DNA of 64,000 nucleotides from Candidatus Woesearchaeota archaeon (GTDB taxonomy: Archaea; Nanobdellota; Nanobdellia; SCGC-AAA011-G17; UBA489). Below the pieces are notes generated by a model. That model worked only from the letters and a program-made list of their open reading frames with translations. It did no database searches and was not told where the DNA came from. A program made the position numbers and the translations under genes. Every line of letters begins with the position of its first letter. The first letter of the stretch is position 1. The stretch covers positions 159,468 to 223,467 of the forward strand of contig CAZUSA010000001.1 of the NCBI GenBank assembly GCA_964622835.1, read 5' to 3'. Positions 2,625 through 62,223 of this stretch are shown one piece after another.

Positions 2625-4907
2625 TTAACTTTCACACACTACATCCACATCATCCACATAGAGTGTGTTGTCTGTTGTAATTGAGATATCCAATGTATTT
2701 GCATTTGTAGGTGTTAAACATTTCTTGGTATAACGTGTATAAGTTGTTGTAACTATTGAATTGAAAGGACAGGTACTAATAATTGCTGAATTTTTGTCTT
2801 TCCAAGTCATTAAAATGTTAATATTGGTAGCTGGATTGTCCGCTTTTAACATAACATTTAACTCATAATTCTTAATAGTATTATCAACACTTATTGTTTG
2901 GCTTATTGAATCTCCTGCAAGTAATTGCATGCTTTTATTTCCAACAACATTTAACGGTGCAGTTGCATCTTCAATGACTACAGGATTGCCACTTATTTGC
3001 CACGCATTATTTGAAAATTCAAAACTTCCATCTTTAAGCTGATTAGAAGCTGCACACCCTAACACATTTTGTCCTTGCGATGCAAATAAATCCATCACGT
3101 CTTGGTGCGCTATTTTTGGATCATTATCAGCCCTTACCAACCCCATACTTCCCTCGCCTACCTCTCCCGAAAAATAGGTATCGGCAAAGATCCAAAAACT
3201 CATCCCTTCGAAAGAGTTAGCATTATTATCTTGAGATAATGTTGCCATTAGGTCAATAACATAATCACTTTGTAATTGTTGTTCAGGTAATGTAAGGGTT
3301 GGAAGCCCATATCCTCCTTCAGACATAAAGAAAGGCTTAACTGTAACGCCAGGATCATCTTCCTTGAGTTTATCTTTAATTAATTCAGAATTATCTAAAA
3401 GAGCCTGACCACCAGCATATCCAGAGTAAGCAAAGTACTCAATATAAGAAAGATTTTGTGTTAATTTCCATTCACCTATTCTCAATGTTTTTTCATCTTG
3501 TTGGTATGGCAACCAACCAGGACCTCCAAAGAGAGGATACTGACCCAAGCGCACCTCATAATATACTTTTTGTTGTGAATTTCCTTGTTTTATTGCTGCA
3601 GTGTAGTTTGTTAAGGTCGGAAATAATACAATTCTATCCCACCATCCCCTAAAATCTTCAAACTTAGAATTATTCCAATTCATTGGAGAATTTATTGGGT
3701 CTGCTTCATCGATATAATTTTGAAATGCACTTGGATAATTGAGCATAAAATTATAGACAATCCTCTGTTTGCTTATCCCACCAGTATAAACTGGAAACAA
3801 TACATCGCTCCAATTAACATAACTTTGACCCCATCTAGCATTCCAGTAATTTAAATCAGGGTTCCCAATAAGGGTATCACTTTGGAGAAATTCTTGCCAT
3901 GAATTCAAATAAATTTGGCTGCCATATTCCCAATAATTTAAATTCATATATTCAGAATCATGCCAGAAATTCACAACATTATCATAACCTTTCATTTCTT
4001 CAACTACAATTTTAATTGCACCAATATGAACATTTCTGAAGGCATCGACTACCATCCAACCAGGGAATAAATATCCACAACCACCAGGCAGTACTTTTCC
4101 GGCACCATCAAAACCGCCCTGGGAGTTACAAGAAGCTCCATAACCCTCTGCTTCATCCGGTATCCTTGGCCCATCAGAAAGGATTACTTTCAACCCAACA
4201 CTATCTGCTATTGTTACTAGTGTTGCCAAATCATTAAGGGTTGCTTGATTTTTAGAAAATGTTCCAAGCGTATAATTAACATTAACAACAAAGTCACCAG
4301 GGTCATTTTTTATAGTTATCGCATCAAACCCTGTTGCCTTTATTTTTTTGAAGTCCATTTCAAGTCTGTCAAGATCTAAATTTCTCCAAAAATAATGATG
4401 TAATGCATGTGGTTGAACGTAATATACAGATCGTAAAAATTCAGGATCTCCTTCATCGAAAGGTTTTAGACCACCGGGTGCTTGACCGCTTGGTTGTTGT
4501 AGATTTCCTCTTGTTGGTGTAGTGGGATTTGGTTGGCACACACCAGACCATCCAGAGCCCCATTTTACAGTAGGATCACAAAAAAATCCTTGTGGGCAAG
4601 GTTCACCACCTACAGAGCAAACACATTGGCATTTATTTTTTTCAGTTGCATCATAGTCTTCAGGACCAATGCAAGCTGTACCGAAAGTAACGCCATCGTA
4701 AGGGCAATTAATAAACGAATTACCTGTTTTTCCCACATCACAACTTTCACCTTGATTTATTATGTTATTACCGCAAACATCTGATGTTGTAACGGTGGGT
4801 GCTTGAAGAGGAATTATGGGTTGTCCTGTTAACTCATTAATATTACTAGCAAACATGGCAGCAGCAAGAACCAACACTATTGTTAATACAAATCCTCTTT
4901 TCTCCAT
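2625..4907 (-). CDS. Secreted protein: signal peptide, Cys-rich N-terminal module with one CGNNIINQGESCD repeat, then a glycoside-hydrolase-like TIM-barrel region
   Basis: 760 aa. N-terminal hydrophobic signal MEKRGFVLTIVLVLAAAMFA. The motif CGNNIINQGESCDVG resembles the Cys-rich repeats of the two giant proteins. The central region (GFDAITIKND, NFWHDSEYMNLNYWEY) reads like a GH5/GH42-type barrel. No decisive catalytic motif confirmed. Confidence 0.45.
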   Translation of the reverse strand: MEKRGFVLTIVLVLAAAMFASNINELTGQPIIPLQAPTVTTSDVCGNNIINQGESCDVGKTGNSFINCPYDGVTFGTACIGPEDYDATEKNKCQCVCSVGGEPCPQGFFCDPTVKWGSGWSGVCQPNPTTPTRGNLQQPSGQAPGGLKPFDEGDPEFLRSVYYVQPHALHHYFWRNLDLDRLEMDFKKIKATGFDAITIKNDPGDFVVNVNYTLGTFSKNQATLNDLATLVTIADSVGLKVILSDGPRIPDEAEGYGASCNSQGGFDGAGKVLPGGCGYLFPGWMVVDAFRNVHIGAIKIVVEEMKGYDNVVNFWHDSEYMNLNYWEYGSQIYLNSWQEFLQSDTLIGNPDLNYWNARWGQSYVNWSDVLFPVYTGGISKQRIVYNFMLNYPSAFQNYIDEADPINSPMNWNNSKFEDFRGWWDRIVLFPTLTNYTAAIKQGNSQQKVYYEVRLGQYPLFGGPGWLPYQQDEKTLRIGEWKLTQNLSYIEYFAYSGYAGGQALLDNSELIKDKLKEDDPGVTVKPFFMSEGGYGLPTLTLPEQQLQSDYVIDLMATLSQDNNANSFEGMSFWIFADTYFSGEVGEGSMGLVRADNDPKIAHQDVMDLFASQGQNVLGCAASNQLKDGSFEFSNNAWQISGNPVVIEDATAPLNVVGNKSMQLLAGDSISQTISVDNTIKNYELNVMLKADNPATNINILMTWKDKNSAIISTCPFNSIVTTTYTRYTKKCLTPTNANTLDISITTDNTLYVDDVDVVCES

Positions 4908-5755: not shown

Positions 5756-5903
5756 AAACTTCTTTTTAAAGGTTCGTACAAAGTAAGAGAAAGGTTAACA
5801 CCACAAAGTGATAACAACTTCAGAGGTAGGTTTATATAGTCTCACGTCCCGTTTCGTTTATCGAAATTTTATTCATAAGAAAGACAAAAGGGAGGTTTTC
5901 ATT

Positions 5904-14848: not shown

Positions 14849-16671
14849 TATTTTGCGTAGTCTGAGATCATTACTTCATCAATAATCCCATGGAAATAGC
14901 CACTAGCACCACCATTTGATCCTATTTGGAAGTTACTTGAAGCAAAGTCAAGAGTACCATCTCCTGTTGTTATAATCACAGGAGCACTACTAGGAACCAT
15001 GTTAACAAAACAGTTAAGGGTTTTTGTTGTACCATCATATTGTACAGCAACATGAGTCCAGGTATCATAAGGAACAACAGAACATCCAACATTTAATGCA
15101 GCATTATCAATATTAAGGGCAGCAAGCAACGTATGTGTTCCCGTACCAGAGTTGTATACTGTTCTAAATTGGTTAAGTGAACCTTTACTTGCCCAAAAAG
15201 AACCAACAGGTTCGCTGGTAAGATATAACCATGCTTCAACAGTTACTGAATCGGTTATAGTTGGATATGTTCCAGCTACAACAGTATCATCGACACCATC
15301 AAAGTATAATCCACCACCATATGCACCATCAATCCAGTATGGTTCTTTAATTGCTTGTTGTTGATCATAAAGATATTCCATTTGTTTAGCACTAAGGGGA
15401 CTATCATAAATAGCTACTTCATCCAGGTTGCCAAAGGTACCAGTCCAGGCCCCCACATCGTTAAATGCTCCGATTTGTGTATTAAGTCCGGACCAAGGAG
15501 CACTCATATCTGGTGTAAATATATCTGTGGGTTTTCCATCCACATAAAATTGACCAACACCATTTTTAATAGTAACACCAGCATGATGCCATCCACCATC
15601 AAAATAATTAGTAGGATCAGTATCATAGAAACTAACACCAAGACTATCAACAAAACGAAGTTTTGCAGTCTGAGTAATAAGAAGTCCATAATGGTTATTA
15701 TTAGTTTTACGTGCAAAGATATATCCACCACCCCAACTAGGATTTGCAAGAACTTTTGTCCATGCAGTAAGAGTAAAATCATCAACAAAATTTCCTGCAG
15801 TCTGCCCTATATTTACTGTATCACTTCTATCAGTAAAATCAAGATTATTACTTCCATCTGTATCCCCATCAAAATACAGTCCCCCTCCAGAGATACCACT
15901 GGACCAATCAGGACAACGCACTAGATCAGGACCTCCCGGACAAATGGATCCGAGAAAACCAAGATCTCCATTATACCCATTGCCACTACTGTCTGTTGCT
16001 GTGTCACCACTTCCTTCATCAAAATGATATACTACTTGAGCAGAATCAAAGTTTTGTAGTGTTCCAGGCGCAGATCCAAGACTATCACTGAGTGTTGTTC
16101 CACTAGCATCATCAAATTTGTATAAGGCGACGGTTGTTCCGGTTGGTATGTAACCATCACCATCACCTGGTGCAAAGCCATTACCGTCATCACTGCCGCC
16201 ACCAAAGCTTTGGCTGGTACCTCCAGCAACGATGGCGCTTAAACTGAATGCTTTGGTGTGTTCAATACTGCTATCTATTGTTTTGTAGGCAAAGGTTGGT
16301 GCGTCTTCAACAAAGTCTCCTTCGGTAAAGACCCCTTCACATCCGGTTACTGTAAATAATTTTTTTTGTCCATTTTTTAAACTGAGTGATGCTGATTGCA
16401 CACTACATGCAGGGTGGGAAAAGTAAAAGGATATGAGATCATCACCAAGTCCGTTTAAGACAGCAATGGTTATGGATCCTTCATCAGCAACAAAATCTAC
16501 ACAGGCAAATCCAGGTCCCATCAAACACGTTTCAGTTACAAAAAGATTATCACCAAAGCCAAAATAGAAACTTAAAGACGCAATAGCTAAAATAACAACG
16601 AGTAACGCCCACCCATAGGTCATCAAAAATTCCATGGCAGCTTGCCCTTTATTATGTATAGATGGGGCCAT
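14845..16671 (-). CDS. Pilin-like N-terminus fused to LamG/concanavalin-like lectin domains (surface adhesin candidate), paralog 1
   Basis: Class III signal KGQAAMEFLMTYGWALLVVILAIASL. LamG-like motifs (LYFDGDTDGS, GGLYFDGVDDTV). The ORF track extends to 16689 and overlaps the upstream paralog. Confidence 0.7.
   Translation of the reverse strand: MAPSIHNKGQAAMEFLMTYGWALLVVILAIASLSFYFGFGDNLFVTETCLMGPGFACVDFVADEGSITIAVLNGLGDDLISFYFSHPACSVQSASLSLKNGQKKLFTVTGCEGVFTEGDFVEDAPTFAYKTIDSSIEHTKAFSLSAIVAGGTSQSFGGGSDDGNGFAPGDGDGYIPTGTTVALYKFDDASGTTLSDSLGSAPGTLQNFDSAQVVYHFDEGSGDTATDSSGNGYNGDLGFLGSICPGGPDLVRCPDWSSGISGGGLYFDGDTDGSNNLDFTDRSDTVNIGQTAGNFVDDFTLTAWTKVLANPSWGGGYIFARKTNNNHYGLLITQTAKLRFVDSLGVSFYDTDPTNYFDGGWHHAGVTIKNGVGQFYVDGKPTDIFTPDMSAPWSGLNTQIGAFNDVGAWTGTFGNLDEVAIYDSPLSAKQMEYLYDQQQAIKEPYWIDGAYGGGLYFDGVDDTVVAGTYPTITDSVTVEAWLYLTSEPVGSFWASKGSLNQFRTVYNSGTGTHTLLAALNIDNAALNVGCSVVPYDTWTHVAVQYDGTTKTLNCFVNMVPSSAPVIITTGDGTLDFASSNFQIGSNGGASGYFHGIIDEVMISDYAKY
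16045..16647. repeat. 603-bp direct repeat, copy A (identical to 17861-18463)
   Basis: Codes the identical 201-aa N-terminal segment (GQAAMEF...GTLQNFD) of both pilin-LamG paralogs. The identical antisense ORFs in the track (16032-16229 and 17743-18045) confirm DNA identity. Confidence 0.85.
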
Positions 16672-18505
16672 CTGAAATACGCACCTCATCTATAATTCCT
16701 TTAAAGAATTGACCACTACCTGTCGATCCAAGGTACATATTGGTACCAGGTTGGAAATTTAATGTACCATTGTAAGGACATGTTTTGACAAGTTGTCCAT
16801 TCAGATACCCACTAATTCCAGATCCATTAAATTGTCCAACAACCTGCTGCCATTGATCTGGCGTTACTGCACCACCACCACCAAAGTTACAGTCAACTGT
16901 TTTAGTAGCTGTTGCATTTGCAATATTATAAGCAACATGGAAATTACCACCAAAAATACGCATTTCATTACCACCTTTTTTTAGGAAAAATTGGTTGTAA
17001 GTTGTTAAAGGATAGACCCATGCTTCTGTTGTTACATAGTCGCCAACAACAAAGTTATCTGCAATGGTAACAGTATCATCAACACCATCAAAGTGTAATC
17101 CACCACTATACGCACCATTAATCCAATATGGTTCATCGAGTGCTTGTTGCTGTTCAAAGAGGTACTCCATTTGGGCTGTTGAAAGAGGTGTGTCATAGAT
17201 GACAAATTCGTCCATGTTTCCGTAGGTACCTTGCCAACCATTCCCTCCATTCCATGCACCGATTTGTGAGATCCATCCATGCCCACCATTAAACATTGCA
17301 GGACTAAATGATGCACCACTAGGTTGACCATCAATATATATTTGTGAGCCAGTAACGCCACTACCGTTAATGACAACACCAATGTGATGCCAGTTACCAT
17401 CATAAAAGTTGAAGGGATCTGCCCAGTAAGAAAATAAAGAAACACCATCGGTGTCGATGAAGCGTGCTCGTGGAGGTAAACCATCATCAAGGTATAATTG
17501 ATAATGCATTTCATATTTTCTTCGGCCAAAGACCGTATGCCCAGAACCATAAGGATTATCAGAAAGTTTTATCCATGATGAAAGAGTAAATTTATCATTA
17601 CTAGAAAAGTCTGCAGTGCTAGCACCGATATCAACAAAATCACCCCTGTCAGTAAAATCGGAAGTACTAGCATCAGTATCACCATCAAAGTATAATCCAC
17701 CACCAGAGATACCACTAGACCACTCAGGACAACGAGTTATGTCTACCCCTGCAGGACAAACAGATTCTGTCGCCCCAAGGTCACCATTATATCCATTGCC
17801 ACTACTATCTGCGGTTGCATCACCATTACCTTCATCAAAATGGTACAGTGCATAAGAAGGATCAAAGTTTTGTAGTGTTCCAGGCGCAGATCCAAGACTA
17901 TCACTGAGTGTTGTTCCACTAGCATCATCAAATTTGTATAAGGCGACGGTTGTTCCGGTTGGTATGTAACCATCACCATCACCTGGTGCAAAGCCATTAC
18001 CGTCATCACTGCCGCCACCAAAGCTTTGGCTGGTACCTCCAGCAACGATGGCGCTTAAACTGAATGCTTTGGTGTGTTCAATACTGCTATCTATTGTTTT
18101 GTAGGCAAAGGTTGGTGCGTCTTCAACAAAGTCTCCTTCGGTAAAGACCCCTTCACATCCGGTTACTGTAAATAATTTTTTTTGTCCATTTTTTAAACTG
18201 AGTGATGCTGATTGCACACTACATGCAGGGTGGGAAAAGTAAAAGGATATGAGATCATCACCAAGTCCGTTTAAGACAGCAATGGTTATGGATCCTTCAT
18301 CAGCAACAAAATCTACACAGGCAAATCCAGGTCCCATCAAACACGTTTCAGTTACAAAAAGATTATCACCAAAGCCAAAATAGAAACTTAAAGACGCAAT
18401 AGCTAAAATAACAACGAGTAACGCCCACCCATAGGTCATCAAAAATTCCATGGCAGCTTGCCCTCTGGAAGATAATATAGAACGCTGTTTAAGACCACCT
18501 CTCAT
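16652..18505 (-). CDS. Pilin-like N-terminus fused to LamG/concanavalin-like lectin domains, paralog 2
   Basis: SSRGQAAMEFLMTYGWALLVVILAIASL. The N-terminal 201 aa after the signal are identical to paralog 1. The C-terminal LamG-like region has diverged (GGLHFDGVDDTV). Confidence 0.7.
   Translation of the reverse strand: MRGGLKQRSILSSRGQAAMEFLMTYGWALLVVILAIASLSFYFGFGDNLFVTETCLMGPGFACVDFVADEGSITIAVLNGLGDDLISFYFSHPACSVQSASLSLKNGQKKLFTVTGCEGVFTEGDFVEDAPTFAYKTIDSSIEHTKAFSLSAIVAGGTSQSFGGGSDDGNGFAPGDGDGYIPTGTTVALYKFDDASGTTLSDSLGSAPGTLQNFDPSYALYHFDEGNGDATADSSGNGYNGDLGATESVCPAGVDITRCPEWSSGISGGGLYFDGDTDASTSDFTDRGDFVDIGASTADFSSNDKFTLSSWIKLSDNPYGSGHTVFGRRKYEMHYQLYLDDGLPPRARFIDTDGVSLFSYWADPFNFYDGNWHHIGVVINGSGVTGSQIYIDGQPSGASFSPAMFNGGHGWISQIGAWNGGNGWQGTYGNMDEFVIYDTPLSTAQMEYLFEQQQALDEPYWINGAYSGGLHFDGVDDTVTIADNFVVGDYVTTEAWVYPLTTYNQFFLKKGGNEMRIFGGNFHVAYNIANATATKTVDCNFGGGGAVTPDQWQQVVGQFNGSGISGYLNGQLVKTCPYNGTLNFQPGTNMYLGSTGSGQFFKGIIDEVRISDGPIYT
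17861..18463. repeat. 603-bp direct repeat, copy B
   Basis: See copy A. Spacing 1816 bp. Confidence 0.85.
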
Positions 18506-35312: not shown

Positions 35313-38111
35313 TTAAATTGGTGTTGAAGGAGGACCATTACCAGGTCCAGGTCCATCACCACCTCCACTTTTTTTACCACCACATGCACAACAACTTATT
35401 GGATCTGTAGGATTACCAAAACCACCTGCACAGAAACCAACACCATCAGAACAGAAATCTGTACAATCTGCATCAGATACACATTCAGGCCTATTACCAC
35501 AAGTACTTGTAATTTCATCACCTGGTTCAACAATAATAGGACCACCACCACCACCAGTATCATCTGGTGGATCTGGAGGTATACCGGGACATTGGTTGTT
35601 CCAACCATCACACTCACACGCTGTACCTGAACAATCAGGCGGTACGCCTGTCGGTTTGTCACCATCACCTATACAACCATTGGTGGGATCACCACAATTA
35701 GGACTACAACATACAGGGTCAGGCGGGATATTACAATTAACCTGTGGGGGTCCGCCAAGTTGGATGCACTCTGATGTGTCACAAAACTCACAGGTACTTA
35801 CATCATATGCAGAACAGTCATTATTACACTGCAAAACACCATTACACAATTGTACAACGCCTTGTAATAAAAAGTCATTACAGTTATTACCGAGGGTATC
35901 TGTTGGCGGTGTACCACTAAATGCACCAGGATCGCATACTTCCCCTGGTTCTATTTGGCCATTCCCACAAACAGATGGAGGCGGAGGTGTTCCTGATAAT
36001 GTACAATCATTATTACAACCATCATTATTGTTACCATTTCCATCATCACATTGTTCACCAAATTCTATAACACCATTACCACATCCAGGTACGACAATTA
36101 TTTTTTTTGTTGAAACTACATCTTTTAATCCCGCGTAATAGCCATATTGGCCAGTGATTGCAGGAGGGTAAACATCACAGTGTTTTGCTGTTCCACTGTT
36201 TGCTTGATAACCACATATTTGTGTACCAATGCACGTTTCAGTAGCAGTATTATAGCCTGAGTTATCACATATTTTTACAGTCCCTTTCAGATAGGTATTG
36301 GGATACCAGTTTGTTTCCCAGATACTTGCTTTTGTAAAAGAACCAGGTTGCACGGTATAAGTTGTCATTTTCAAAGTTAACGTTGTATATGTACAATCTG
36401 CATCACAACCGGTTATTCCATCATTGATAGTGTCACCATCATCACAGTGTTCTGCTCCTTCTATAACACCATTCCCACATATTCCAGGACCGCCTTCTGT
36501 TTGACAGCTACTGTCACAGCCATCGCCGTTTGCTGTATTCCCATCATCGCATGTTTCACCTGCTTCAAGAACATTATTTCCGCAGGCACCAATAACACCG
36601 CATGTACAATCTATTTGACAGTATCCTGGACAAGCAGTATCATCTGCTCCATCACATTGTTCGCCACCTGCTGGTTCATAATTATTATTACCACAAAAGT
36701 AGGTTCCGCCAAAGTTACACACAGTGTTATCTGTTGAATCATAATCACATGCATCTCCACAACTGTCGCCGTCTGCGTTTGCTTGGTTGGGTGGTGTGCT
36801 ACATTTTTCTACAAGAACACCATTAGTTGTTTTTCCCGCACAATCTGCATTGCTGGTACAAACAATGTCTGCATCAAAGGGATTGAGACTTGGATCAGGA
36901 TTGGATGATGTACTAACAGTTACACAGGTTCCTTTCAAGACACCGTTGGGATGGAGTGGACAATTATCTAGCCCAGGACAACTACCCCCTGGTAAACAAT
37001 TTCCTAAACCGTCTCCGTCTGCATCATCAGGACCATAACAGGTACATAAACTAGTACAACTGGATAGTCCACAAAGAGCATCATCTGCTCCATCACATTG
37101 TTCACCGTTACTTGTTTCTTGTATACCGTTACCGCAAATGTTTGCACCAACACATGCACTGTCACCATCACATGCACTATCTGCACAGTCTGTTAGGCCA
37201 TTACAATTATTATCTTTGGTGTCTCCACATGTTGTTGGGAAACTTACACCTTCACCAGCTAGTGTATTAATCTGATCATTAGTGTCATCGCAGTCTACGT
37301 TACCACATGATGAACTGTAGAAGTATTCTTCTCCATCACCATCTGCATCACACGTGTTACAAACACCTAAACTACAGTATTCTCCACTGTCACAATCACT
37401 ATCACTTTCACATCCTAAACAAATACCTGATCCACTTGAAGTATCGCAGTTACCATAGGGACAGTCACCGTCAACGGTACAACTAAAAGAACATGCACCA
37501 TCACTGCCAGGTAGACCGCATCCTATGAGTGCAGGGTCCACAGGATTGCTATCATACACACAAAAGTTATCATCGTCACATGTTGCAGTATATCCTGCGG
37601 TCATGTCTTGACAGTCACTTGCGTCATCACAGTATTCACATTGTTCGCCACCAGTAACTAATCCATCGCCACATTCTTGGAAAACAATTTGTCCGTTGGT
37701 TCCATCATTAAAGAGTGTTAAATAGTGAATACCTTTATTTAATAAAAAGTCTAAACTGCCACCGACGAAATAATCCATTTCAAATTGGTCGACTGTTCCA
37801 CCGTAATTTATGGTAATGACTTTACATTGTGTTGTGCCATCTGAGAGTGCATCTGTACATTGATCGAACTGTGCACTTTCTATGTTAGGAACATTAACAA
37901 CAATGGTATCCGAACTACCACTGCCTAAATTACTTAATGATTCAACGACGTTATCTAGTGTATTAACAGTATCGGTCATATAGGGACTTTGTGTTTTCCC
38001 TTGGGATAAGAAGAATAACAGCGGTATGAGAAGAACAAGAATAATTCCCGTAAGAACCATTTGTTCGGTTGCTGCTTGCGCTCGTCGCGCACTACCCCTT
38101 TTGCGAACCAT
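35313..38111 (-). CDS. Giant Cys-rich repeat surface protein with pilin-like class III signal peptide
   Basis: 932 aa. N-terminus KRGSARRAQAATEQMVLTGIILVLLIPLLFF parallels the RGQAAMEFLMTYGWALLVV of the pilins. At least 4 Myxococcus-type repeats (CGNNVLEAGETCDDGNTANGDGCDSSC, CGNGVIEGAEHCDDGD, CGNGVIEFGEQCDDGNGNNNDGC, CGNGQIEPGEVCD). Thrombospondin-3-like Asp-rich Ca-binding stretches (DADGDGEEY). About 13% Cys. Confidence 0.75.
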   Translation of the reverse strand: MVRKRGSARRAQAATEQMVLTGIILVLLIPLLFFLSQGKTQSPYMTDTVNTLDNVVESLSNLGSGSSDTIVVNVPNIESAQFDQCTDALSDGTTQCKVITINYGGTVDQFEMDYFVGGSLDFLLNKGIHYLTLFNDGTNGQIVFQECGDGLVTGGEQCEYCDDASDCQDMTAGYTATCDDDNFCVYDSNPVDPALIGCGLPGSDGACSFSCTVDGDCPYGNCDTSSGSGICLGCESDSDCDSGEYCSLGVCNTCDADGDGEEYFYSSSCGNVDCDDTNDQINTLAGEGVSFPTTCGDTKDNNCNGLTDCADSACDGDSACVGANICGNGIQETSNGEQCDGADDALCGLSSCTSLCTCYGPDDADGDGLGNCLPGGSCPGLDNCPLHPNGVLKGTCVTVSTSSNPDPSLNPFDADIVCTSNADCAGKTTNGVLVEKCSTPPNQANADGDSCGDACDYDSTDNTVCNFGGTYFCGNNNYEPAGGEQCDGADDTACPGYCQIDCTCGVIGACGNNVLEAGETCDDGNTANGDGCDSSCQTEGGPGICGNGVIEGAEHCDDGDTINDGITGCDADCTYTTLTLKMTTYTVQPGSFTKASIWETNWYPNTYLKGTVKICDNSGYNTATETCIGTQICGYQANSGTAKHCDVYPPAITGQYGYYAGLKDVVSTKKIIVVPGCGNGVIEFGEQCDDGNGNNNDGCNNDCTLSGTPPPPSVCGNGQIEPGEVCDPGAFSGTPPTDTLGNNCNDFLLQGVVQLCNGVLQCNNDCSAYDVSTCEFCDTSECIQLGGPPQVNCNIPPDPVCCSPNCGDPTNGCIGDGDKPTGVPPDCSGTACECDGWNNQCPGIPPDPPDDTGGGGGPIIVEPGDEITSTCGNRPECVSDADCTDFCSDGVGFCAGGFGNPTDPISCCACGGKKSGGGDGPGPGNGPPSTPI

Positions 38112-40459: not shown

Positions 40460-41182
40460 TTGAGAAAAGACATATATGTCTCAAAGAGATTATATGATAT
40501 GGATTTTTCAATACGAAATAAACAAAATGTAGAGAGTAGGTGGAGAAAGGTTCATGAAAAAGAAAGAGCATACATTAGAGATAATAAAGAAAAGACAAAG
40601 CATTTTAGGGCAAGAATATGTGGATTTTTAGCAGGAGATGGGAATCTCCTTATTGCAGGAAAAAACAACAAACACCATAACACAGTACGATTTTTTCCAG
40701 ACCATCATTCACTAATAAAACCATATATCGAGGCTACATTAAAGGTCTACAATAAAAAACCAAAAATAATAAAGAAGAAAAATTATTATTGTTTAAATAT
40801 TGATTCAAAACCAATGGTTGAGGATATTTTATCTACAACAACGTTAGGAACCAGCACATGGAGTATTCCAAAAAGTTTGAAAAGTAATAATGAAAAAATT
40901 GAGTGGTTACGAGCGTTCTTTGATGCTGAAGCCTATGTTCATCAAAAATATATCAGAGTTCAATCAGTGAATGGAGAGGGATTAAAAGAAGTAAAAGAGC
41001 TATTAGGAGACTTGAACATATATTCAAAGATTTACGAATATATGCCTAAACAAAAAAATCATAAAAAAGTCTATATGCTAACAATAATAAGAAAAAAGGA
41101 TAAGTTACATTATAAGTCCCTCATAGGATTTAACCATACAACAAAACTTAAAAAGCTAAATTTTACACTTCAAACAAGATAA
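40460..41182 (+). CDS. Free-standing double-motif LAGLIDADG homing endonuclease
   Basis: 240 aa. Motif 1 ICGFLAGDGNLLIA. Motif 2 LRAFFDAEAYVHQ. Lys-rich. Stop is 4 nt before the tRNA at 41187. Confidence 0.75.
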   Translation: MRKDIYVSKRLYDMDFSIRNKQNVESRWRKVHEKERAYIRDNKEKTKHFRARICGFLAGDGNLLIAGKNNKHHNTVRFFPDHHSLIKPYIEATLKVYNKKPKIIKKKNYYCLNIDSKPMVEDILSTTTLGTSTWSIPKSLKSNNEKIEWLRAFFDAEAYVHQKYIRVQSVNGEGLKEVKELLGDLNIYSKIYEYMPKQKNHKKVYMLTIIRKKDKLHYKSLIGFNHTTKLKKLNFTLQTR

Positions 41183-45738: not shown

Positions 45739-46050
45739 TTAGCGTCTCCGCTTTGTTCGTGCTCTACGAGCTGTCTTTCGAACAGTCTTTCGTGCAGTTT
45801 TACGAACAGTTTTACGTGCTCTACGTACGGTTTTACGAACAGTTTTACGTGCTCTTCGTACAGTTTTACGTGTTGCTTTTCTGGTACTCTTTCGAGTTGC
45901 CTTACGTGCTACACGGCGCTTAGTTGTACGTACTTTTGTACGTGCTCTTCGCACAGTTTTTCGTACTGCCTTACGTACTGTTTTACGTGCGCTCTTTCGA
46001 GTTGCTCTTCGTACAGTCTTTCTTGCAGTTCTTGTTTTTTTTCTTGCCAT
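45739..46050 (-). CDS. Highly basic Arg/Lys tandem-repeat protein (putative nucleic-acid-binding)
   Basis: 103 aa made almost entirely of 4-aa periodic units (RKTV, RRAR, RKAT). Underlying 12-nt DNA repeats ttttacgaacag/ttttacgtgctc. The minus frame is the only one giving a biochemically sensible product. Confidence 0.5.
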   Translation of the reverse strand: MARKKTRTARKTVRRATRKSARKTVRKAVRKTVRRARTKVRTTKRRVARKATRKSTRKATRKTVRRARKTVRKTVRRARKTVRKTARKTVRKTARRARTKRRR

Positions 46051-52810: not shown

Positions 52811-54547
52811 TTGAAGTTTTTTAAAGGGCAAAAATATGCAACTTGTATGCCCCTAAACAAGGAACAATTTGCAGAACTAATAGCTCAAAAAGCAGATCCG
52901 AAGATGTCTAAACAGGCGTTTCAAACATTAAAACAACGCGTGGCTCATCAATTAGCATTAACACACGTTCCTAAGAATACTGAAATACTTTTTGCGTTAA
53001 AGAAGAAGGATCGTGAACGCTTACATACATTACTTGTTTCCAAGCCAACGAGAACAATGTCCGGCGTAGCACCAGTTGCTATTATGAGTGCTCCTATTGC
53101 ATGCCCTCCTCAAGCATTATGTACGTATTGTCCTGGTGGTCCAAAGTCTATTTTTGGTGATGTTCCTAAGAGTTATACTGATGGTGCTCCAGCTGTTAAA
53201 AGAGCTATTCGTAATAAGTATGATCCCTATTTGCAGGTGTTTAATCGGTTAGAACATTATCATTTACTAAACCAGTGTCCAACAAAAGTGGAATTGATTG
53301 TTATGGGTGGTACGTTTCCTTCATTTGAAAAAGCATATCGTGATGTGTTTATTGCACGTGCGTTACAAGCGATGAATGATTTTAGTACAATGTTTTACAC
53401 ACAAAAAGGCACATTAGATGAAACAAAGTTTCGTGATTTTTTCTTATTAGATTTATCGTATGCTGATAAAGAACGTGAAAAAATTATTATTAAGCGTATG
53501 GAAGCATTGCGTGATTTAAAAAAACCTACAGTACTTGATGAACAAACAAATAATGAAACGGCACGTATTCGTTGTATTGCATTGGTTATTGAAACACGTC
53601 CTGATTGTGCAACACAAAAAGAGATTGATGAGATGTTGCGATATGGAACAACACGTGCAGAGATTGGTGTACAGAGTTTACGTGATCATGTATTGAAACG
53701 CATTAAGCGCGGTCATGATGTAGCAACAACGATTACAGCTACACAAGAATTACGTGATGCATTATTTAAAATTACGTATCATATGATGGTCGGTCTTCCT
53801 GAAACAACGAAAGAAACGGATATTCAAGAAGGAAAACAGTTGTTTGATGATCCACGGTTTCGTCCTGATTCGTTAAAGGTATATCCTTGCATGGTGATGG
53901 CTGGCACTCCGTTATATGAAGAATACAAAAAGAAATTATTCACACCGGTCACAACTGATGAAGCGATGGAACGTATTATTGAGTGGAAAAAAACAATTCC
54001 TGAATATTGCCGTATTATGCGTGTACAGCGCGATTTACCGACATATATGACTGAAGCGGGTGTTGACAAAACTAATTTACGGCAGTTAATGCATAATAAG
54101 AAAATTGTCTGCAGATGTATTCGTTGTCGTGAACCAAAAGAACAAACAGTTGATTTTGATAATGTTACAACGAAAGTAATAACGTATGAAGCATCGGGTG
54201 GTACAGAATGTTTTATTGCAAAAGAAGATGTTACGAATGATTTGTTGTTAGGATATGCTCGTTTGCGTATTCCGTTTAAGCCTGTTCGTAAGGAAATTAC
54301 ATCGACAAGTGCTGGTATTCGTGAGTTACATGTATTTGGCACTGCATTAGATATGCAGAAGAAGCCAACGAAAGAAGTGCAACATCGTGGGCTTGGAAAA
54401 GAACTAATGGAAGAGGCTGAAAAGTTAGCGCGTGAAACGTATGATAAGAAGAAGATGGTTGTTATTGCTGGTTTGGGTGTTCGCGAATATTATAAGAAAC
54501 AATTACAGTATATTCAAGAAGGCCCGTATGTTTCTAAGAAGATTTAA
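52811..54547 (+). CDS. elp3: Elp3-family radical SAM / GNAT tRNA modification enzyme
   Basis: Radical-SAM cluster motif CTYCPGGP. Conserved Elp3 blocks (IMRVQRDLPT, HMMVGLPET). C-terminal acetyltransferase domain. Confidence 0.85.
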   Translation: MKFFKGQKYATCMPLNKEQFAELIAQKADPKMSKQAFQTLKQRVAHQLALTHVPKNTEILFALKKKDRERLHTLLVSKPTRTMSGVAPVAIMSAPIACPPQALCTYCPGGPKSIFGDVPKSYTDGAPAVKRAIRNKYDPYLQVFNRLEHYHLLNQCPTKVELIVMGGTFPSFEKAYRDVFIARALQAMNDFSTMFYTQKGTLDETKFRDFFLLDLSYADKEREKIIIKRMEALRDLKKPTVLDEQTNNETARIRCIALVIETRPDCATQKEIDEMLRYGTTRAEIGVQSLRDHVLKRIKRGHDVATTITATQELRDALFKITYHMMVGLPETTKETDIQEGKQLFDDPRFRPDSLKVYPCMVMAGTPLYEEYKKKLFTPVTTDEAMERIIEWKKTIPEYCRIMRVQRDLPTYMTEAGVDKTNLRQLMHNKKIVCRCIRCREPKEQTVDFDNVTTKVITYEASGGTECFIAKEDVTNDLLLGYARLRIPFKPVRKEITSTSAGIRELHVFGTALDMQKKPTKEVQHRGLGKELMEEAEKLARETYDKKKMVVIAGLGVREYYKKQLQYIQEGPYVSKKI

Positions 54548-57372
54548 CGTTTTCTTACACTATAAAATCCTATTAATATCAAGATTGCTAAGAATAAGCT
54601 CATGAAGTCAAAGACGGATGCTTTTACTGCTGGTTCTAAACTACAGGCAACACTTTGTTGTGGTGCAATGGAACATTGTCCTGTTGCACATTCTTTACAA
54701 CTGCGTGTTTTTGCGTTGTCAATACATTCTGACCATTTACCACATATCCATGATTCACTAACACCAACACATTGTGGTTCTACAACGGTTGGTGCATTTT
54801 TGACACTACATCCAGGTTCAACACAGTTTCCAAAGTCTGCATTACACACTTTACCACCTGCACAGACTGTTGGTGGCGTACTTAATTCATTACAACCATC
54901 ATTGTTATAGTCTCCACAGAATTGTACATTGCCATTCGTTAGACAAATAGATGTTTCTGAAACACAATAGGAAGAACAACTGTCACTAGTCCCATCACCG
55001 TCTATTCCTTCGAGAAGACAGTCAGAACTACAGCCGTCATCATCATCGTTATTACCATCATCACATTGTTCACCTGCTGTATCATCTAAGGTATTATCAC
55101 CACAGTAACCACTTGTTAGACTACTGGTTACTTCAAGCGTAGTACTTGTTGAAACCACTGCACCATCATAAATACCACGTACCATCCAATACGCTGATTC
55201 TGGTGTTGGTCCAGGGTTTGTATTTTCTGCATTCCATGTTGCAGTACCTGTTGAACCACTAATAGAAAGAGGAGATGGTTGTGCACTTGAACTTGTCCCT
55301 TCATTGGCTTCATACACATCAAGAGCAAACGTATATTGATCACAGTCACTATTAGGCAATGTTAGTGTAATAGTCATAACGGTTCCCCTATCAACAGAAC
55401 CATCATCACCAACAGGCGACCAACTAAAGGCTGCTGTTGTAAGTGCTAGTGTACATGCGGAAGGTTCAATAATACCACCATCATCTTTCACTAAACAGGT
55501 ATTGTAATCATTGGAATCAATGTCACAGGCATTTCCACAACTATCACCTTCTGTGCCACTACCATCTTCATTGTCTTGTGTAAGTTCACAGTATTCCACA
55601 AGGATGCCCTCAACAATTTTCCCTGTACAGTCAGCATCTTCTGTACAGACTAAATTATACGCAATAGGATCAAGTGAAGGATCAGGGTTTGATTTTGTTA
55701 CTGCATTAATACAGGTTCCAAGATTATCTCCGTTCGGATGGTTGGGACAATTATCATCATCGTTATTTCCACAAACACCATCTGCACCACACAATGATGT
55801 ACCGTCACCATCCGGGTCTGATACTGCTGGATTGTCACAAATACAATTACTTAAACAAACATCGCCACCACAAGTAGCGTCATCATTACCGTCACATTGT
55901 TCGCCAATATCTTTAACACCGTCACCACAGTAGGGTTCTGGTGGAGGAATATTGTAACAGTTACTAGTGTCAATATGACATGAACCATATGTACTCGTAC
56001 CTTCAAGTGCAGAATCACCAACTTTAAAGCAACGTAATGATCCTGTATCAAAGCCAAAGGTTTCACATGATGTTGCTCCCATAATAACATCACCTTGCGA
56101 AGTGTAGTCACATTGTTCTTGGAGTGCATATTGGTCTCCTTGATCAAGATATCCATTGCCACACCATCCTCCACCACCATATTGGTAAATACATCCAAAA
56201 CTAGTATCAATACGACAGCCACTCGTACAAGTCAACGGTGCTGTACCCGGGGAAGTAGTCATACCATCTAAATCACCAAAGAAATCTTCACAGGTAACAA
56301 TGCCACCCATGTTTGTACCGTCACATTGTTCGCCTGGTTCTATAATACCATTACCACAAACAGATGGGACGGCAGCAGAACAATCACTTGTATCATATTC
56401 ACAGGTTGCTGTACAACTCAGATCTCCTGCGGCAAAGGTATCAATATCAACACAGCTTGCAATGTTTCCAAAGCTCGTACCATCACAGACTTCGCCTGGA
56501 TTTAAGGTGTCATCACCACAGGTTCCAGCATCGGCAACGCCGGGTATAAGAGCACCACTACAATCGGAAGTGTCAATACCACATGCATTCGTACAGGCAA
56601 GTATTCCTGTGGTAAAGCCAAAGTCTCCACAACCATTTATTTTACCGAAGTTTGCACCGTCACATAATTCTCCAGGATCAAGGTTGCCATCGTTGTTACA
56701 TTGTGCACTTTGTTCGACGGATTGACAACAAAGATTGTTTGCAAAGATGTCACATTCAGAAGTATGTGCATTATAGGTACTATCTCCTGCTCCTTCAAAG
56801 GAAAAGAGACATTCAAATCCTGTACCAAGACCATCACAACTTCCTTGAAGGGTTTGACAAGCAATGTTGTCATAACAAACAGGAACATATAAACTTGGAT
56901 CGGGTAGATTTGCTGATACAGTTTCAGGTGCGTAATAATGTGCATCACTTACGGTACCATTGACAGGAGGTAAACCATTGGAAACATAGCCAACTAAGTT
57001 ACTCATATCAGATAAACAGGTTCGTGTTGGTGCAACTGTTGTTAGTGCGGAGGATACTTCTATACAATAAGGAAGAGAATCAGGACCATAGGGTGAATAA
57101 AATGATTCTTCAGCATCGACGGTAATAACATGAGAGTTTGTTGCAGCAATAACGCCATCAACAAGAGAACCGTACATGCCAAGAACAGCATTGTCATTGA
57201 AGGATGCACAGCTTGAACTTGATATTGGTACAACAACGGCTCCGGTAATAAGTGATGAAGAACTGGATGGAACAATGACGTCGGCAACGCCTAGGTCATA
57301 CATATGAAACGCAAGAAAGGATGCAAATAAAATTAAAAATGCTGGAAATAGTACAGAATGTTCATGATTCAT
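54544..57372 (-). CDS. Giant Cys-rich repeat surface protein, paralog of 35313-38111, with C-terminal TM anchor
   Basis: 942 aa. N-terminal signal/TM. Repeats CGNGIIEPGEQCDGTNMG, CGDGVKDIGEQCDGNDDATCGGDVC, CGDNTLDDTAGEQCDDGNNDDDDGCSSDC. Segment NPDPSLDPIAYNLVCTEDADCTGK...GDSCGNACDIDSNDYNTC is homologous to the other giant. C-terminus FLAILILIGFYSVRKR. Confidence 0.7.
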   Translation of the reverse strand: MNHEHSVLFPAFLILFASFLAFHMYDLGVADVIVPSSSSSLITGAVVVPISSSSCASFNDNAVLGMYGSLVDGVIAATNSHVITVDAEESFYSPYGPDSLPYCIEVSSALTTVAPTRTCLSDMSNLVGYVSNGLPPVNGTVSDAHYYAPETVSANLPDPSLYVPVCYDNIACQTLQGSCDGLGTGFECLFSFEGAGDSTYNAHTSECDIFANNLCCQSVEQSAQCNNDGNLDPGELCDGANFGKINGCGDFGFTTGILACTNACGIDTSDCSGALIPGVADAGTCGDDTLNPGEVCDGTSFGNIASCVDIDTFAAGDLSCTATCEYDTSDCSAAVPSVCGNGIIEPGEQCDGTNMGGIVTCEDFFGDLDGMTTSPGTAPLTCTSGCRIDTSFGCIYQYGGGGWCGNGYLDQGDQYALQEQCDYTSQGDVIMGATSCETFGFDTGSLRCFKVGDSALEGTSTYGSCHIDTSNCYNIPPPEPYCGDGVKDIGEQCDGNDDATCGGDVCLSNCICDNPAVSDPDGDGTSLCGADGVCGNNDDDNCPNHPNGDNLGTCINAVTKSNPDPSLDPIAYNLVCTEDADCTGKIVEGILVEYCELTQDNEDGSGTEGDSCGNACDIDSNDYNTCLVKDDGGIIEPSACTLALTTAAFSWSPVGDDGSVDRGTVMTITLTLPNSDCDQYTFALDVYEANEGTSSSAQPSPLSISGSTGTATWNAENTNPGPTPESAYWMVRGIYDGAVVSTSTTLEVTSSLTSGYCGDNTLDDTAGEQCDDGNNDDDDGCSSDCLLEGIDGDGTSDSCSSYCVSETSICLTNGNVQFCGDYNNDGCNELSTPPTVCAGGKVCNADFGNCVEPGCSVKNAPTVVEPQCVGVSESWICGKWSECIDNAKTRSCKECATGQCSIAPQQSVACSLEPAVKASVFDFMSLFLAILILIGFYSVRKR

Positions 57373-57413
57373 GAAAATGAGCCCCTTTTATGCTTGTATA
57401 ATACACATAAATC

Positions 57414-57428
57414 TGACTTATAAACCTT
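57414..57428 (+). promoter_or_regulatory. TATA/BRE element gacttataaaccttt (identical to 262-276)
   Basis: Exact 15-mer repeat 50 bp upstream of ORF 57478. Confidence 0.4.
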
Positions 57429-57477: not shown

Positions 57478-57756
57478 ATGGAACTTGGCGGAAACATTAC
57501 ATTACAGGGATTTGATGCGGTTGATCCAGCGACGCTTATTGTTGTAAAGAAAATTGTTGGTAATTATACAAAGCGTTTAACGGAAAAACATGAGGATTTT
57601 ACAGGATTACATTTGGAATTAACACAGAAAGAAGGAAAACAGTTACAAATTTGTGCAAAATGTCAACGGACATCAGGGAATAATGAGACAAAACATGATG
57701 AAGATAATTTATTCTTTGCGTTAAGCGGTGCATTGGACGCTATTTTGGCATTATAA
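57478..57756 (+). CDS. Hypothetical small protein
   Basis: 92 aa with a single CAKC. Upstream of L21e. Not identified. Confidence 0.4.
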   Translation: MELGGNITLQGFDAVDPATLIVVKKIVGNYTKRLTEKHEDFTGLHLELTQKEGKQLQICAKCQRTSGNNETKHDEDNLFFALSGALDAILAL

Positions 57757-61493: not shown

Positions 61494-62223
61494 GTGATTT
61501 CAAAGAACAATGCAACAGCAGAATTAGTGGGTTTAAGCTTCGGAGATGGTAGTTTAACGTATAGAAAGAATACGAAAAAATTACGATTCCAATTAAGAGG
61601 TGATGCAACTGAAGAAAGAAAACATTATACGGAGTTTATCATCCCGTTATTTAATAAAGAAATTATGAGACCTTTATTTTATAGAAATGTTGGAACAGTA
61701 TATGATAAAAAAAGGAAATTGTTTTGGCATTTCTGTAGAAAGTAAAAAAATTAATAATTTGCACCACACTCTTGGAATTCCAGTTGGTAAGAAAAATAAT
61801 CTAAAAATTCCTTTATGGATAAAAAATTCTGAAGAATACAAAAAATCCTTTTTGAGAGGGTTATTTGACACTGATGGGTGTATCTATTTTTTGAAAAACA
61901 CTTCTGAAAAAAATCCAAGAATTCACAAAAGAATTTGTCTTACAATAACACTCTGCTCAAAAAATATGATAAATAAAATTTCAGAAATTTTAAAGGGTTT
62001 AAATATCGGACATGATATCAAAGAATATCAACCAAAAAATAAAAATTGGCAAAAATCATATACTATACGGCTTTCTGGAGGAAAAAGAGTCATCCAGTGG
62101 TTTAATTGTATTAGTTCAAATAACCCTAAACATAAAACAAAATTTGAAGTATGGAAAAAACAAGGATTTTGCAGTCCCAAAACAACATTAAAACAAAGAG
62201 AAAGAATTTTAAAAAGGAATTAA
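61494..62223 (+). pseudogene. LAGLIDADG homing endonuclease gene interrupted by a frameshift at an A7 run (61707-61713)
   Basis: Frame-0 ORF 61494-61745 carries motif 1 (LVGLSFGDGSLTY). Frame-1 ORF 61687-62223 carries motif 2 (LRGLFDTDGCIYF). Removing one A joins ...VYDKK to GNCFGISVESKK in one about 243-aa ORF. Confidence 0.6.

Follow-up and report, generated by a model that had tools for sequence, protein, structure and literature searches.

A cysteine-rich modular protein of a Woesearchaeota-type archaeon with a C-terminal membrane helix and a rare triple-repeat domain: a candidate contact protein

The gene for protein A and its modules

The window (the whole 64-kb stretch of DNA that was analysed) contains at 54544-57372 a long reading frame whose product we call protein A; two further proteins of the window serve for comparison, namely protein B (35313-38111) and the glycoside-hydrolase-like protein C (2625-4907). 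The reading frame of protein A opens with ATG, a start that is supported by orthologues collinear from residue 1. Its features are as follows.

54544..57372, minus strand: coding sequence of protein A, 942 aa plus stop (ORF list; exact match in public collections, P0001; end-to-end orthologue alignment)
57418..57424, minus strand: putative TATA-like motif TTTATAA, ~49 nt upstream of the ATG (direct sequence reading)
~57381-57384, minus strand: putative Shine-Dalgarno-like GGGG run upstream of the gene (direct sequence reading)
57283..57372, minus strand: aa 1-30, N-terminal hydrophobic segment (MNHEHSVLFPAFLILFASFLAF...), presumed signal peptide or signal anchor (orthologue conservation)
56701..57222, minus strand: aa 51-224, triple-repeat N[AS]H...CC domain, 10 Cys, proposed distal binding module (profile search; AF2; Foldseek)
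55930..56700, minus strand: aa 225-481, four long 6-Cys repeats (6, 6, 6 and 6 Cys; C[GN]xG..GExCDG..C..G.L.C..C..DTS.C), variable "stalk" (repeat listing)
55495..55929, minus strand: aa 482-626, cassette in common with protein B (alignment to B 326-465)
55108..55455, minus strand: aa 640-755, beta-rich domain, 2 Cys, motif W.AEN.NPG (orthologue conservation)
55003..55107, minus strand: aa 756-790, canonical DUF4215/TIGR02232 cysteine-rich acidic repeat (NCBIfam, Pfam)
54643..55002, minus strand: aa 791-910, 16-Cys C-terminal domain including W.CG.WS.C....TR.C..C (kept in all orthologues)
54547..54642, minus strand: aa 911-942, tail with juxtamembrane motif SLEPAVKASVFDF, TM helix MSLFLAILILIGFY and basic end SVRKR (hydropathy; orthologue conservation)

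Reading frame, cysteine count (72; 7.6%) and hydropathy agree with the earlier note's description of a 942-aa Cys-rich protein that ends in a hydrophobic helix plus RKR (Kyte-Doolittle: 2.36 for the N-terminal stretch and 2.54 for the C-terminal helix). The protein has 134 D+E vs 21 K+R, and the number of cysteines is even in every module (10, 6, 6, 6, 6, 6, 10, 2, 4 and 16) and zero in the hydrophobic ends. This is a genuine, conserved gene of a tiny Woesearchaeota-type (DPANN) archaeon: four public contigs encode an identical protein, one further copy was read directly, and orthologues with the same termini and modules share 35-49% identity. At least five Woesearchaeota/Nanoarchaeota genomes have a positional orthologue, with ELP3 on one side and the L21e/S13 ribosomal cluster on the other. 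The synteny comparison, which took in four Woesearchaeota/Nanoarchaeota MAGs, gave the same order at all related loci (S13-DUF655-L21e-orf92, with the orthologue of protein A divergent from these and ELP3 convergent on it).

The 6-Cys stalk repeats are missing from the orthologues P0002 and P0003; P0004, P0007 and P0013 are among the proteins made of this unit. The beta-rich domain is possibly Ig/PKD-like, its sole Pfam match being a weak one (K319L-like_PKD, E 0.04). The repeat that follows it was recognized by NCBIfam TIGR02232 (29.6 bits vs a cut-off of 20.8) and Pfam PF13948 (E 3.9e-4), and it aligns with pappalysin-2 (8sl1). Protein A has one CGxG..GExCDDGN..DGC..C unit (aa 757-788), a shorter form of it at aa 482-514 and four longer 6-Cys variants. 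It resembles in this the TIGR02232 myxo_disulf_rpt/PF13948 DUF4215 proteins of Myxococcus, pappalysin-2 (PDB 8sl1) and the diatom adhesive-trail protein Ca5255, and the setting would likewise be extracellular, acidic and disulfide-rich. In contrast to those proteins, protein A consists of such repeats for only about a third of its length, and the N-terminal domain, cassette core, Ig-like domain, C-terminal domain and tail lie outside the family. The 16-Cys C-terminal domain gave no match in the Pfam search and is 37-55% identical across orthologues.

A cassette in common with protein B

The cassette of protein A consists of a short CGDG..GEQCDG repeat and an Asp-rich core (DPDGDG..DNCPNHPN..GTC..SNPDPSL..ADCTGK..GDSCGNACDIDSND). 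Related elements lie at two other places in the window.

36717..37136, minus strand: aa 326-465 of protein B, homologous counterpart of the cassette (alignment with A)
4737..4775, minus strand: lone CGNNIINQGESCD repeat unit, N-terminal in protein C (pattern scan)

The earlier note had proposed that A and B have repeat types and a homologous block in common. Alignment of A 482-626 with B 326-465 is collinear over 147 columns with 74 identities (50%), interrupted by gaps of 2, 2 and 2 columns and one single-column gap, and its Smith-Waterman score of 372 lies ~29 SD above that of 500 composition-preserving shuffles (62.9 ± 10.5; maximum 102); for the whole proteins the score was 486 vs 142 ± 18. 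The block is also retained in all orthologues of protein A. The earlier note had named a merely shared Cys/Asp/Gly bias as what would overturn its claim, and composition-adjusted BLASTP did return short repeat matches alone (best E 2e-4) without the 147-column block. Since that search missed the block, an unmasked alignment is needed for this check, and the comparison with shuffles refutes purely compositional similarity, for which we see next to no likelihood.

The word "paralogous" fared less well. The part in common amounts to ~147 aa plus short repeats, and the N-terminal domain, Ig-like domain, C-terminal domain and tail of protein A are without counterpart in B, pointing to module sharing rather than gene duplication. 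The two proteins also differ in their anchors, as had been noted, since B has the pilin-type (class III-like) motif RRA|QAATEQMVL at its N-terminus vs the C-terminal TM helix and RKR of A. Among the 74 identical residues of the cassette, 42 use the same codon vs 40.9 expected, so that synonymous sites are saturated, indicating that the sharing is ancient and reflects a common module and not whole-gene paralogy or recent conversion. To judge from these alignments, domain shuffling, and not descent from one duplicated gene, gave A and B their common ancient cassette and repeat modules. Protein C, proposed as a third member of a Cys-repeat family, does carry one copy of the repeat: six-frame translation of the window yields 12 instances of the motif CG[NDE][GND]..GExC[DE], always in A (4), B (7) or C (1). 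A family of three is nevertheless an overstatement, as C has this single unit and HMM searches with it gave no match.

The cassette resembles thrombospondin type 3 repeats (PF02412; bacterial PF18884) in DxDxDG, DNCPxHPN and ..GDxCGxACDxDSxD and in its high Asp content, and the positions of its cysteines suggest a disulfide-pinned Ca-binding loop; it probably binds Ca2+. It differs from them in that Pfam TSP_3 matched B without significance (E 1.5) and A not at all, and that the halves of the motif are parted by a conserved insertion of ~50 residues (GTC..SNPDPSL..C..ADCxGK..LVExC).

The earlier note had also read a diversifying repertoire into these genes. In another reading, a diversity-generating retroelement (DGR) would make protein A hypervariable, or recent gene conversion with B would have shaped it. 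Many DUF4215 proteins among the homologues of A bear the FGE-sulfatase domain PF03781, a fold typical of DGR targets. However, protein A lacks PF03781 in the Pfam search, no long near-identical repeat pair includes it, and its longest exact nucleotide match with B is 20 nt. With copies identical in all public contigs that carry the gene, a protein B that differs at one residue in another assembly, a conserved position and the saturation described above, we disfavour this reading as highly improbable and found nothing that bears out "diversifying". What varies in protein A from genome to genome, as far as the sequences tell, is the set of modules, which are slowly gained and lost.

The two hydrophobic ends of protein A

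A Sec-type N-terminus, as the earlier note had it, is plausible for protein A. The n-region is without K or R, and columns H5, L8-L13, F16, A17, F19, L20 and F22 are invariant in the five orthologues; the segment as a whole is 67-77% identical among orthologues vs 25-42% for the next domain. Such conservation of the h-region is, on these alignments, far above the norm of signal peptides and what targeting needs. Both features suggest that the segment may be retained as a second anchor, in which case the N-terminal domain would be near the membrane.

At the other end, residues E913, P914, F921, D922, Y937 and R940 of the tail are invariant among orthologues. The tail might be a new sorting signal (EPxVKGSxFD, TM helix, basic end) for a hypothetical sortase- or archaeosortase-like enzyme, cleavage by which would give a lipid-anchored or released protein. 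Its tripartite layout, with a conserved motif, a TM helix and basic residues at the extreme C-terminus, is that of exosortase/archaeosortase signals (PMC6098224), the first five of the invariant residues fit such a signal, and similar tails ([LKG][PSG][FV]F, TM helix, Y[FY], K/R) occur under other ectodomains in P0057, P0137, P0145, P0146, P0152 and P0160. Against this, the motif is EPxVKGSxFD where archaeosortase-type signals have PGF/PEF, no LPXTG, PGF or PEP motif is found in the tail, and none of the NCBIfam CTERM/sortase-signal models matched it even at E<=10. A scan of hypothetical and membrane proteins of the window, and of ~13 kb of flanking sequence, turned up no sortase/exosortase-family gene, and no other ORF of the 64-kb window has a tail of this type. 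Archaeosortases have been reported from a subset of Euryarchaeota only, and not from DPANN (PMC6098224), and the conservation of the tail may simply reflect a last ectodomain strand and the helix. We regard a sorting signal as quite doubtful; it would be compatible with protein A being either an adhesin or an envelope component.

The triple-repeat domain and a proposed role for protein A

The N[AS]H...CC domain is rare, a profile search of 1.84e9 representatives having returned 42 proteins at E<=1e-3, and it is undescribed in the Pfam and NCBIfam libraries (no match in the Pfam search). An AlphaFold2 model was obtained with high confidence (pLDDT 87.9; pTM 0.86), and Foldseek searches with it of PDB and BFVD gave no match. 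Each of the three units keeps N and H invariant, and the units are mutually homologous, as an HMM of unit 3 matches units 1 and 2 of canonical members at 1e-7 to 1e-14. In 37 of the 42 family members the domain immediately follows the signal peptide. In P0128 and P0135, relatives of B with a pilin-like N-terminal anchor, it stands at the extreme C-terminus (P0135 is collinear with B across residues 2-340), placing it farthest from the anchor in both anchoring modes. The domain also occurs in small stand-alone secreted proteins, and in P0005, P0006, P0126 and P0127 an NHL propeller interrupts unit 2.

We suggest that this domain probably binds something on another cell. Three-site repeat lectins include the ricin-B-type beta-trefoils, with (QxW)3, and the GNA-type beta-prism II proteins. 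By analogy, the domain is compact and all-beta (~130-175 aa), would lie outermost in surface proteins, and has three homologous units that each repeat a polar/aromatic signature, N-[AS]-H ... Y; it is from these three repeated motifs alone that the analogy is drawn. The domain differs from such lectins in lacking sequence or Foldseek similarity to them (best beta-trefoil TM ~0.2, E >3) and in having ~3 strands per unit in the model vs 4.

In our reading, protein A would be exported and membrane-anchored at its C-terminus, a very acidic, disulfide-rich, modular protein of the cell surface. Next to the membrane we would place the TM helix with its short basic cytoplasmic end, the juxtamembrane motif and the 16-Cys domain, followed outward by the single DUF4215 repeat, the beta-rich domain that may be Ig/PKD-like and the Asp-rich cassette, and then by the variable stalk of four 6-Cys repeats and the distal three-unit domain. 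The disulfide- and Ca-stabilised modules may serve as a stiff spacer that differs in length and composition from one genome to the next. If three-site lectins are a guide, the distal domain may bind a ligand on a host or partner cell, most likely a glycan or a polymer of its surface. Based on this predicted architecture, we lean slightly towards protein A being a C-terminally anchored adhesin or contact protein with a distal binding domain. DUF4215 repeats are known from a diatom adhesive-trail protein (bioRxiv 10.1101/2023.03.06.531300).

The fixed position of its gene next to housekeeping genes would suit an adhesin and a core component of the envelope equally well. As a structural protein of S-layer type, such as a stalk anchored in the membrane to hold up or space a surface layer, protein A would not bind a host. 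All relatives examined have one conserved gene for it at a fixed locus next to ribosomal and RNA-polymerase genes, its sequence is invariant across assemblies of the population, and in size and C-terminal TM anchor it is like known archaeal S-layer anchors (PMC6098224). Yet Pfam and NCBIfam searches gave no S-layer family match, and the codon adaptation of the gene is unremarkable (0.55), lower than that of RNAP (0.69-0.73) and EF-2 (0.74), and it does not exceed that of other surface genes. The gain and loss of middle modules among orthologues would be odd for a lattice former, and the stand-alone secreted forms of the N[AS]H...CC domain speak against it too; we consider a structural role of this kind unlikely. 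The adhesin reading finds a parallel in surface proteins of Nanoarchaeota, to which a role in host contact is ascribed (PMC6142677), as protein A too appears to be a large exported hypothetical DPANN protein with a single-helix anchor. Those proteins have a raised density of non-synonymous SNPs (PMC6142677), whereas protein A is invariant in the assemblies compared and conserved in position.

The gene and its modules

The reading frame at 54544-57372 was confirmed as the earlier note had described it, running for 942 codons from an ATG start on the minus strand. Three reading frames of the window concern us here, the latter two of which were also present.

54544-57372 (-): A, the protein under study, 942 aa
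35313-38111 (-): B, the other giant Cys-rich protein, 932 aa with 90 Cys
2625-4907 (-): C, a protein of 760 aa

A is rich in Cys (72 residues; 7.6%), Gly (11%), Asp (10%) and Ser (10%), and contains 134 acidic vs 21 basic residues. The window is archaeal, has a G+C content of 37%, and carries the genes for RNA polymerase B'/B''/A'/A'', EF-2, EF-1alpha, S10, ELP3, L21e, S13, S4 and S11. Four public contigs, the longest of 293 kb, encode a protein identical to A, and among named genomes the nearest that hold relatives are MAGs of Candidatus Woesearchaeota and Nanoarchaeota. Codon adaptation was rejected as a proxy for expression of A, its value being unremarkable and uninformative.

To derive the architecture of A, four orthologues (P0002, P0003, P0005 and P0006) were aligned with it, and the related public proteins P0125-P0131 were added later.

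Modules of A, with their residues and Cys content
Hydrophobic N-terminus: aa 1-30; 0 Cys
Triple-repeat domain: aa 51-224; 10 Cys
Four long repeats (the stalk): aa 225-481; 6 Cys each
Short CGDG..GEQCDG repeat: aa 482-514; 6 Cys
Asp-rich core: aa 515-626; 10 Cys
Beta-rich domain: aa 640-755; 2 Cys; weak K319L-PKD hint (E 0.04)
Canonical DUF4215/TIGR02232 repeat: aa 756-790; 4 Cys
C-terminal domain: aa 791-910; 16 Cys
Tail: aa 911-942; 0 Cys

Every module contains an even number of Cys residues and both hydrophobic ends contain none; together with the acidity, the even counts would mark the modules as extracellular, each folding on its own and held by disulfide bonds. Residues 757-788 (CGDNTLDDTAGEQCDDGNNDDDDGCSSDCLLE) fit the four-Cys unit CGxG..GExCDDGN..DGC..C and align to a solved pappalysin-2 repeat (8sl1; E 1e-8). 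Both giants scored above the cut-off of the NCBIfam model TIGR02232 (A: 29.6 bits; B: 57.1; cut-off 20.8), and with the Pfam model PF13948 (cut-off 27) A fell below at 21.1 and B exactly at the cut-off at 27.0. A search of isolated pieces against Pfam at E<=10 returned sub-threshold matches only (DUF6184, E 1.5e-3; K319L PKD, E 0.04; TSP_3, E 1.5). A belongs with the large modular Cys-rich surface proteins that bear DUF4215 repeats, and two features beyond that known kind are worth following: the conserved termini and a triple-repeat domain with N[AS]H motifs that is as yet undescribed. Should none of the readings given below hold, A would simply add to the large hypothetical surface proteins with such repeats. 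Papers dealing with horizontal transfer and "cysteine-rich repeats" (PMC7379824; bioRxiv 10.64898/2026.06.07.730663) were left aside, as their repeat may belong to another family.

The block shared by A and B

The earlier note had called A and B paralogous on the strength of a shared block, a claim that would fail if the likeness were only compositional. Composition-adjusted BLASTP found short repeat matches only, and we therefore replaced it with unmasked Smith-Waterman alignment and shuffling, which gave a whole-protein score of 486 (shuffled B: 142 ± 18). At the core of this alignment, A 482-626 pairs collinearly with B 326-465 in a block with identity in 74 of 147 columns, and the block's score of 372 lies far above those of 500 shuffles (62.9 ± 10.5; maximum 102), indicating that the block, composed of the short CGDG..GEQCDG repeat and the Asp-rich core, is homologous and that the composition-only reading fails. 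Beyond it, the likeness of A and B is limited to repeat units, so that A and B share a homologous module and are not paralogues over their whole length. The DNA sequences of A and B are 60% identical over the block, the 74 identical residues use identical codons in 42 cases vs 40.9 expected from codon usage alone, and the longest exact nucleotide match is 20 nt, showing that the sharing is old and was kept by selection on the protein. Recent duplication or gene conversion between A and B was excluded by the saturated synonymous sites and the shortness of this longest exact match. The locus shows that Cys-rich proteins of DPANN-type genomes are mosaics of old modules and not recent paralogues.

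The block also behaves as a strongly constrained cassette: the copy in A matches that of B (score 372) no less well than those of the orthologues of A (249-360). Its motifs (DPDGDG, DNCPNHPN and GDSCGNACDIDSND) look like thrombospondin type 3 repeats but, unlike those, are interrupted by a conserved insertion of ~50 residues. When the cassette alone was searched against Pfam at E<=10, TSP_3 was not significant for B (E 1.5; 9 bits) and nothing was returned for A, leaving membership of the thrombospondin type 3 families (PF02412 / PF18884) unsupported. Asp clusters of the forms DxDxDG and DxCDxD are visible in the cassette, and binding of Ca2+ by it would be plausible.

Together with C, A and B had been proposed to form a three-member family of Cys-repeat proteins. 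A six-frame scan of the window for CG[NDE][GND]..GExC[DE] returned 12 occurrences (A: 4; B: 7; C: 1), so the shared motif holds for all three, and the membership of C comes down to a single unit, CGNNIINQGESCD, with no HMM match. C otherwise consists of a signal peptide and a large domain whose only match, to Glyco_hydro_42, is sub-threshold (E 0.056), and the glycoside-hydrolase label given to it was not established.

The triple-repeat domain and the two termini

No Pfam or NCBIfam model matched the N-terminal N[AS]H...CC triple-repeat domain of A (hereafter N-domain), and Pfam also gave no match for 10 members of its family. A profile built on the N-domain, to which A itself scores 230.9 bits (E 8.9e-64), retrieved only 42 matches at E ≤ 1e-3 among 1.84 billion representative proteins. 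We delimited the family by this profile and by three units that each bear N-[AS]-H and close in C-C or C-Y. Most of the matched proteins show the N[AS]H motif three times, at intervals of 40-55 residues, and an HMM of unit 3 alone recovered the first two units in canonical members (E 1e-7 to 1e-14), indicating a true internal triplication. Units 1 and 2 have diverged in the family of A, and unit 2 of A reads DAH in place of N[AS]H. The N, the H and the flanking Cys of each unit are invariant or nearly so, with H81, H145 and H203 of A falling in the H columns. An AlphaFold2 model from a 26-row alignment (pLDDT 87.9; pTM 0.86) is all-beta with ~3 strands per unit; a run from a 7-row alignment (pLDDT 42) was discarded. 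The three Asn/His/Tyr signatures recall three-site lectins, as an analogy only.

We then considered where the N-domain sits. It directly follows the N-terminal signal in 37 of the 42 proteins, is internal in three, and lies at the extreme C-terminus in two, P0128 and P0135, which are relatives of B with a pilin-like N-terminus. P0135 and B are collinear over residues 2-340 (43% identity; E 4e-88); B itself lacks the N[AS]H domain, and its cassette occupies the place of the C-terminal N-domain of these two relatives. The N-domain therefore lies at the end opposite the anchor, whichever end is anchored, and this is the best argument we have that its role would be to bind a ligand at the distal end. 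In P0005, P0006, P0126, P0127 and P0129 (and at the related loci L002 and L007) an NHL beta-propeller of ~300 aa is placed within unit 2, between ..YVSNG and ..H.Y.PE, as a domain within a domain.

The tail of A consists of the juxtamembrane SLEPAVKASVFDF, the helix MSLFLAILILIGFY and a terminal SVRKR, and E913, P914, F921, D922, Y937 and R940 are invariant in the orthologues. In its tripartite form (motif, TM helix, basic cluster) it resembles exosortase and archaeosortase signals, a match that the earlier note had put forward for checking, along with the presence of a sortase-like gene. Neither check gave support: the last 49 aa matched no NCBIfam family, and no CTERM model, at E ≤ 10; the tail contains no LPXTG, PGF or PEP motif; and no sortase-like gene turned up in Pfam searches of 20 hypothetical or membrane proteins encoded in the window or in the precomputed Pfam lists of the ~13 kb flanks. 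Reports of archaeosortases concern a subset of Euryarchaeota (PMC6098224). That the tail is a cleaved sorting signal, which could be added to any of the functional readings, has a low probability. No other ORF of the 64-kb window carries this type of tail. A related pattern (..C..C..[LKG][PSG][FV]F.., TM helix, Y[FY], K/R) occurs in six metagenomic proteins (P0057, P0137, P0145, P0146, P0152 and P0160) whose ectodomains are unrelated to that of A, so a lineage-specific anchoring module is possible.

At the other end, the N-terminus of A (MNHEHSVLFPAFLILFASFLAF) contains no Lys or Arg and is 67-77% identical among orthologues, with only 25-42% in the domain that follows, a degree of conservation that is unusual for a mere Sec signal. 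B starts differently, with RRA/QAATEQMVLTGIILVLL (RRA/QAATEQMVL) and a conserved N-terminal domain of 140 aa, and the RRA/ motif is kept in P0128 and P0135. We take this start to fit the archaeal class III (pilin-type) signal pattern Q+1/E+5/L+9. Pfam support for such signals (PF04021/PF07790) was sub-threshold (B: no match; 5808-6374: Class_IIIsignal, E 0.58). The B-type pilin-like N-terminus is found in three more ORFs of the window:

5808-6374 (+): small pilin-like ORF, N-terminal coding sequence in common with the tandem pair below
14845-16689 (-): pilin-type N-terminus (..KGQAAMEFLMTYGWALLVV..) and Laminin_G_3 domains
16652-18505 (-): tandem paralogue of the preceding, same layout

Over 300 nt the two tandem genes share 94% identity, which suggests recent duplication or conversion.

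Locus, variation and proposed role

In all related loci the gene for A is flanked by ELP3, which is convergent with overlapping stop regions, and by a 92-aa ORF, beyond which lie L21e, Rpb4, DUF655, S13, S4, S11 and RpoD. The 92-aa ORF (57478-57756, +) is divergent from A, stands beside L21e, has a counterpart of 46-57% identity there in every related locus, and has no Pfam match. Two LAGLIDADG-like ORFs, 40460-41182 (+) and 61687-62223 (+), adjoin the S10 and RpoD/tRNA-Leu regions; in related loci the equivalent position is occupied by PF14528 LAGLIDADG_3 genes, and the two ORFs of the window may be free-standing homing endonucleases in the housekeeping cluster.

Neighbouring genes are 63-83% identical where the orthologues of A are 40-52% identical; A evolves faster than its neighbours yet is vertically inherited. 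Its module content also varies between genomes: A carries the stalk repeats, P0006 has additional ones and P0002 and P0003 lack them, and the NHL insertion is a further difference. Within the sampled population, all contigs that encode A give the same protein sequence, and a single residue of B is changed in one other assembly. A as the target of a diversity-generating (DGR-like) system was rejected, as there was no template/variable repeat pair and A has no PF03781, a target domain of the C-type-lectin/FGE-sulfatase fold. The earlier interpretation was thus partly supported: the homology of the block held, and the "diversifying repertoire" survives only as slow domain shuffling between genomes, the population being nearly invariant and the repeat pair lacking.

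We also observed that N-X-S/T sequons are strongly avoided in A (1 vs 10.0 expected) and B (0 vs 10.1), with 0 of 1000 shuffles as low for either, and the pilin-LamG protein at 14845-16689 has 0 vs 5.0 expected. Orthologues elsewhere are much less depleted or not at all (P0002: 9 vs 10.5; P0127: 9 vs 9.2), and the avoidance looks genome-specific.

DPANN archaea depend on cell contact, and the molecules of contact are almost all unannotated. The best-supported reading of A is that of a C-terminally anchored, rigid acidic stalk that would present a distal triple-repeat binding domain, through which contact with a partner cell or surface could be made. The main rival, that A is a core envelope or S-layer-type structural protein, would suit the fixed locus, but is opposed by the variable modules, the unremarkable codon adaptation and the lack of matches to S-layer families. 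The contact stalk agrees with the episymbiotic way of life ascribed to DPANN archaea and with what has been proposed for the surface proteins of these cells (PMC6142677), and is likewise in keeping with the DUF4215 repeats of a proteomically identified protein of diatom adhesive trails (bioRxiv 10.1101/2023.03.06.531300). The locus offers a conserved protein, easily found through synteny, with a clear inside-to-outside layout, and the N-domain is well predicted, undescribed, and recurs in small proteins that are secreted and at the tips of pilin-like ones; together they make a concrete binding hypothesis testable. A bolder proposal, which we consider improbable, has two separate parts. In the first, the N-domain would be a new fold that binds carbohydrates or surfaces at three sites, carried at the far tip of membrane- and pilin-anchored proteins alike and serving host recognition in DPANN and similar ultra-small cells. 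In the second, the tail (EPxVKGSxFD or LPFF, TM-Y[FY], basic end) and the strikingly invariant N-terminal helix would define a DPANN-specific sorting or anchoring pathway with its own enzyme.

Elsewhere in the window, an ORF of ~103 aa at 45739-46049 (-), not listed because of our 120-aa threshold, consists almost wholly of basic repeats with a 12-nt (4-aa) period (..RKTVRRARKTVRKTA..), is A/T-rich upstream, and was detected as repeat families D2 and D6.
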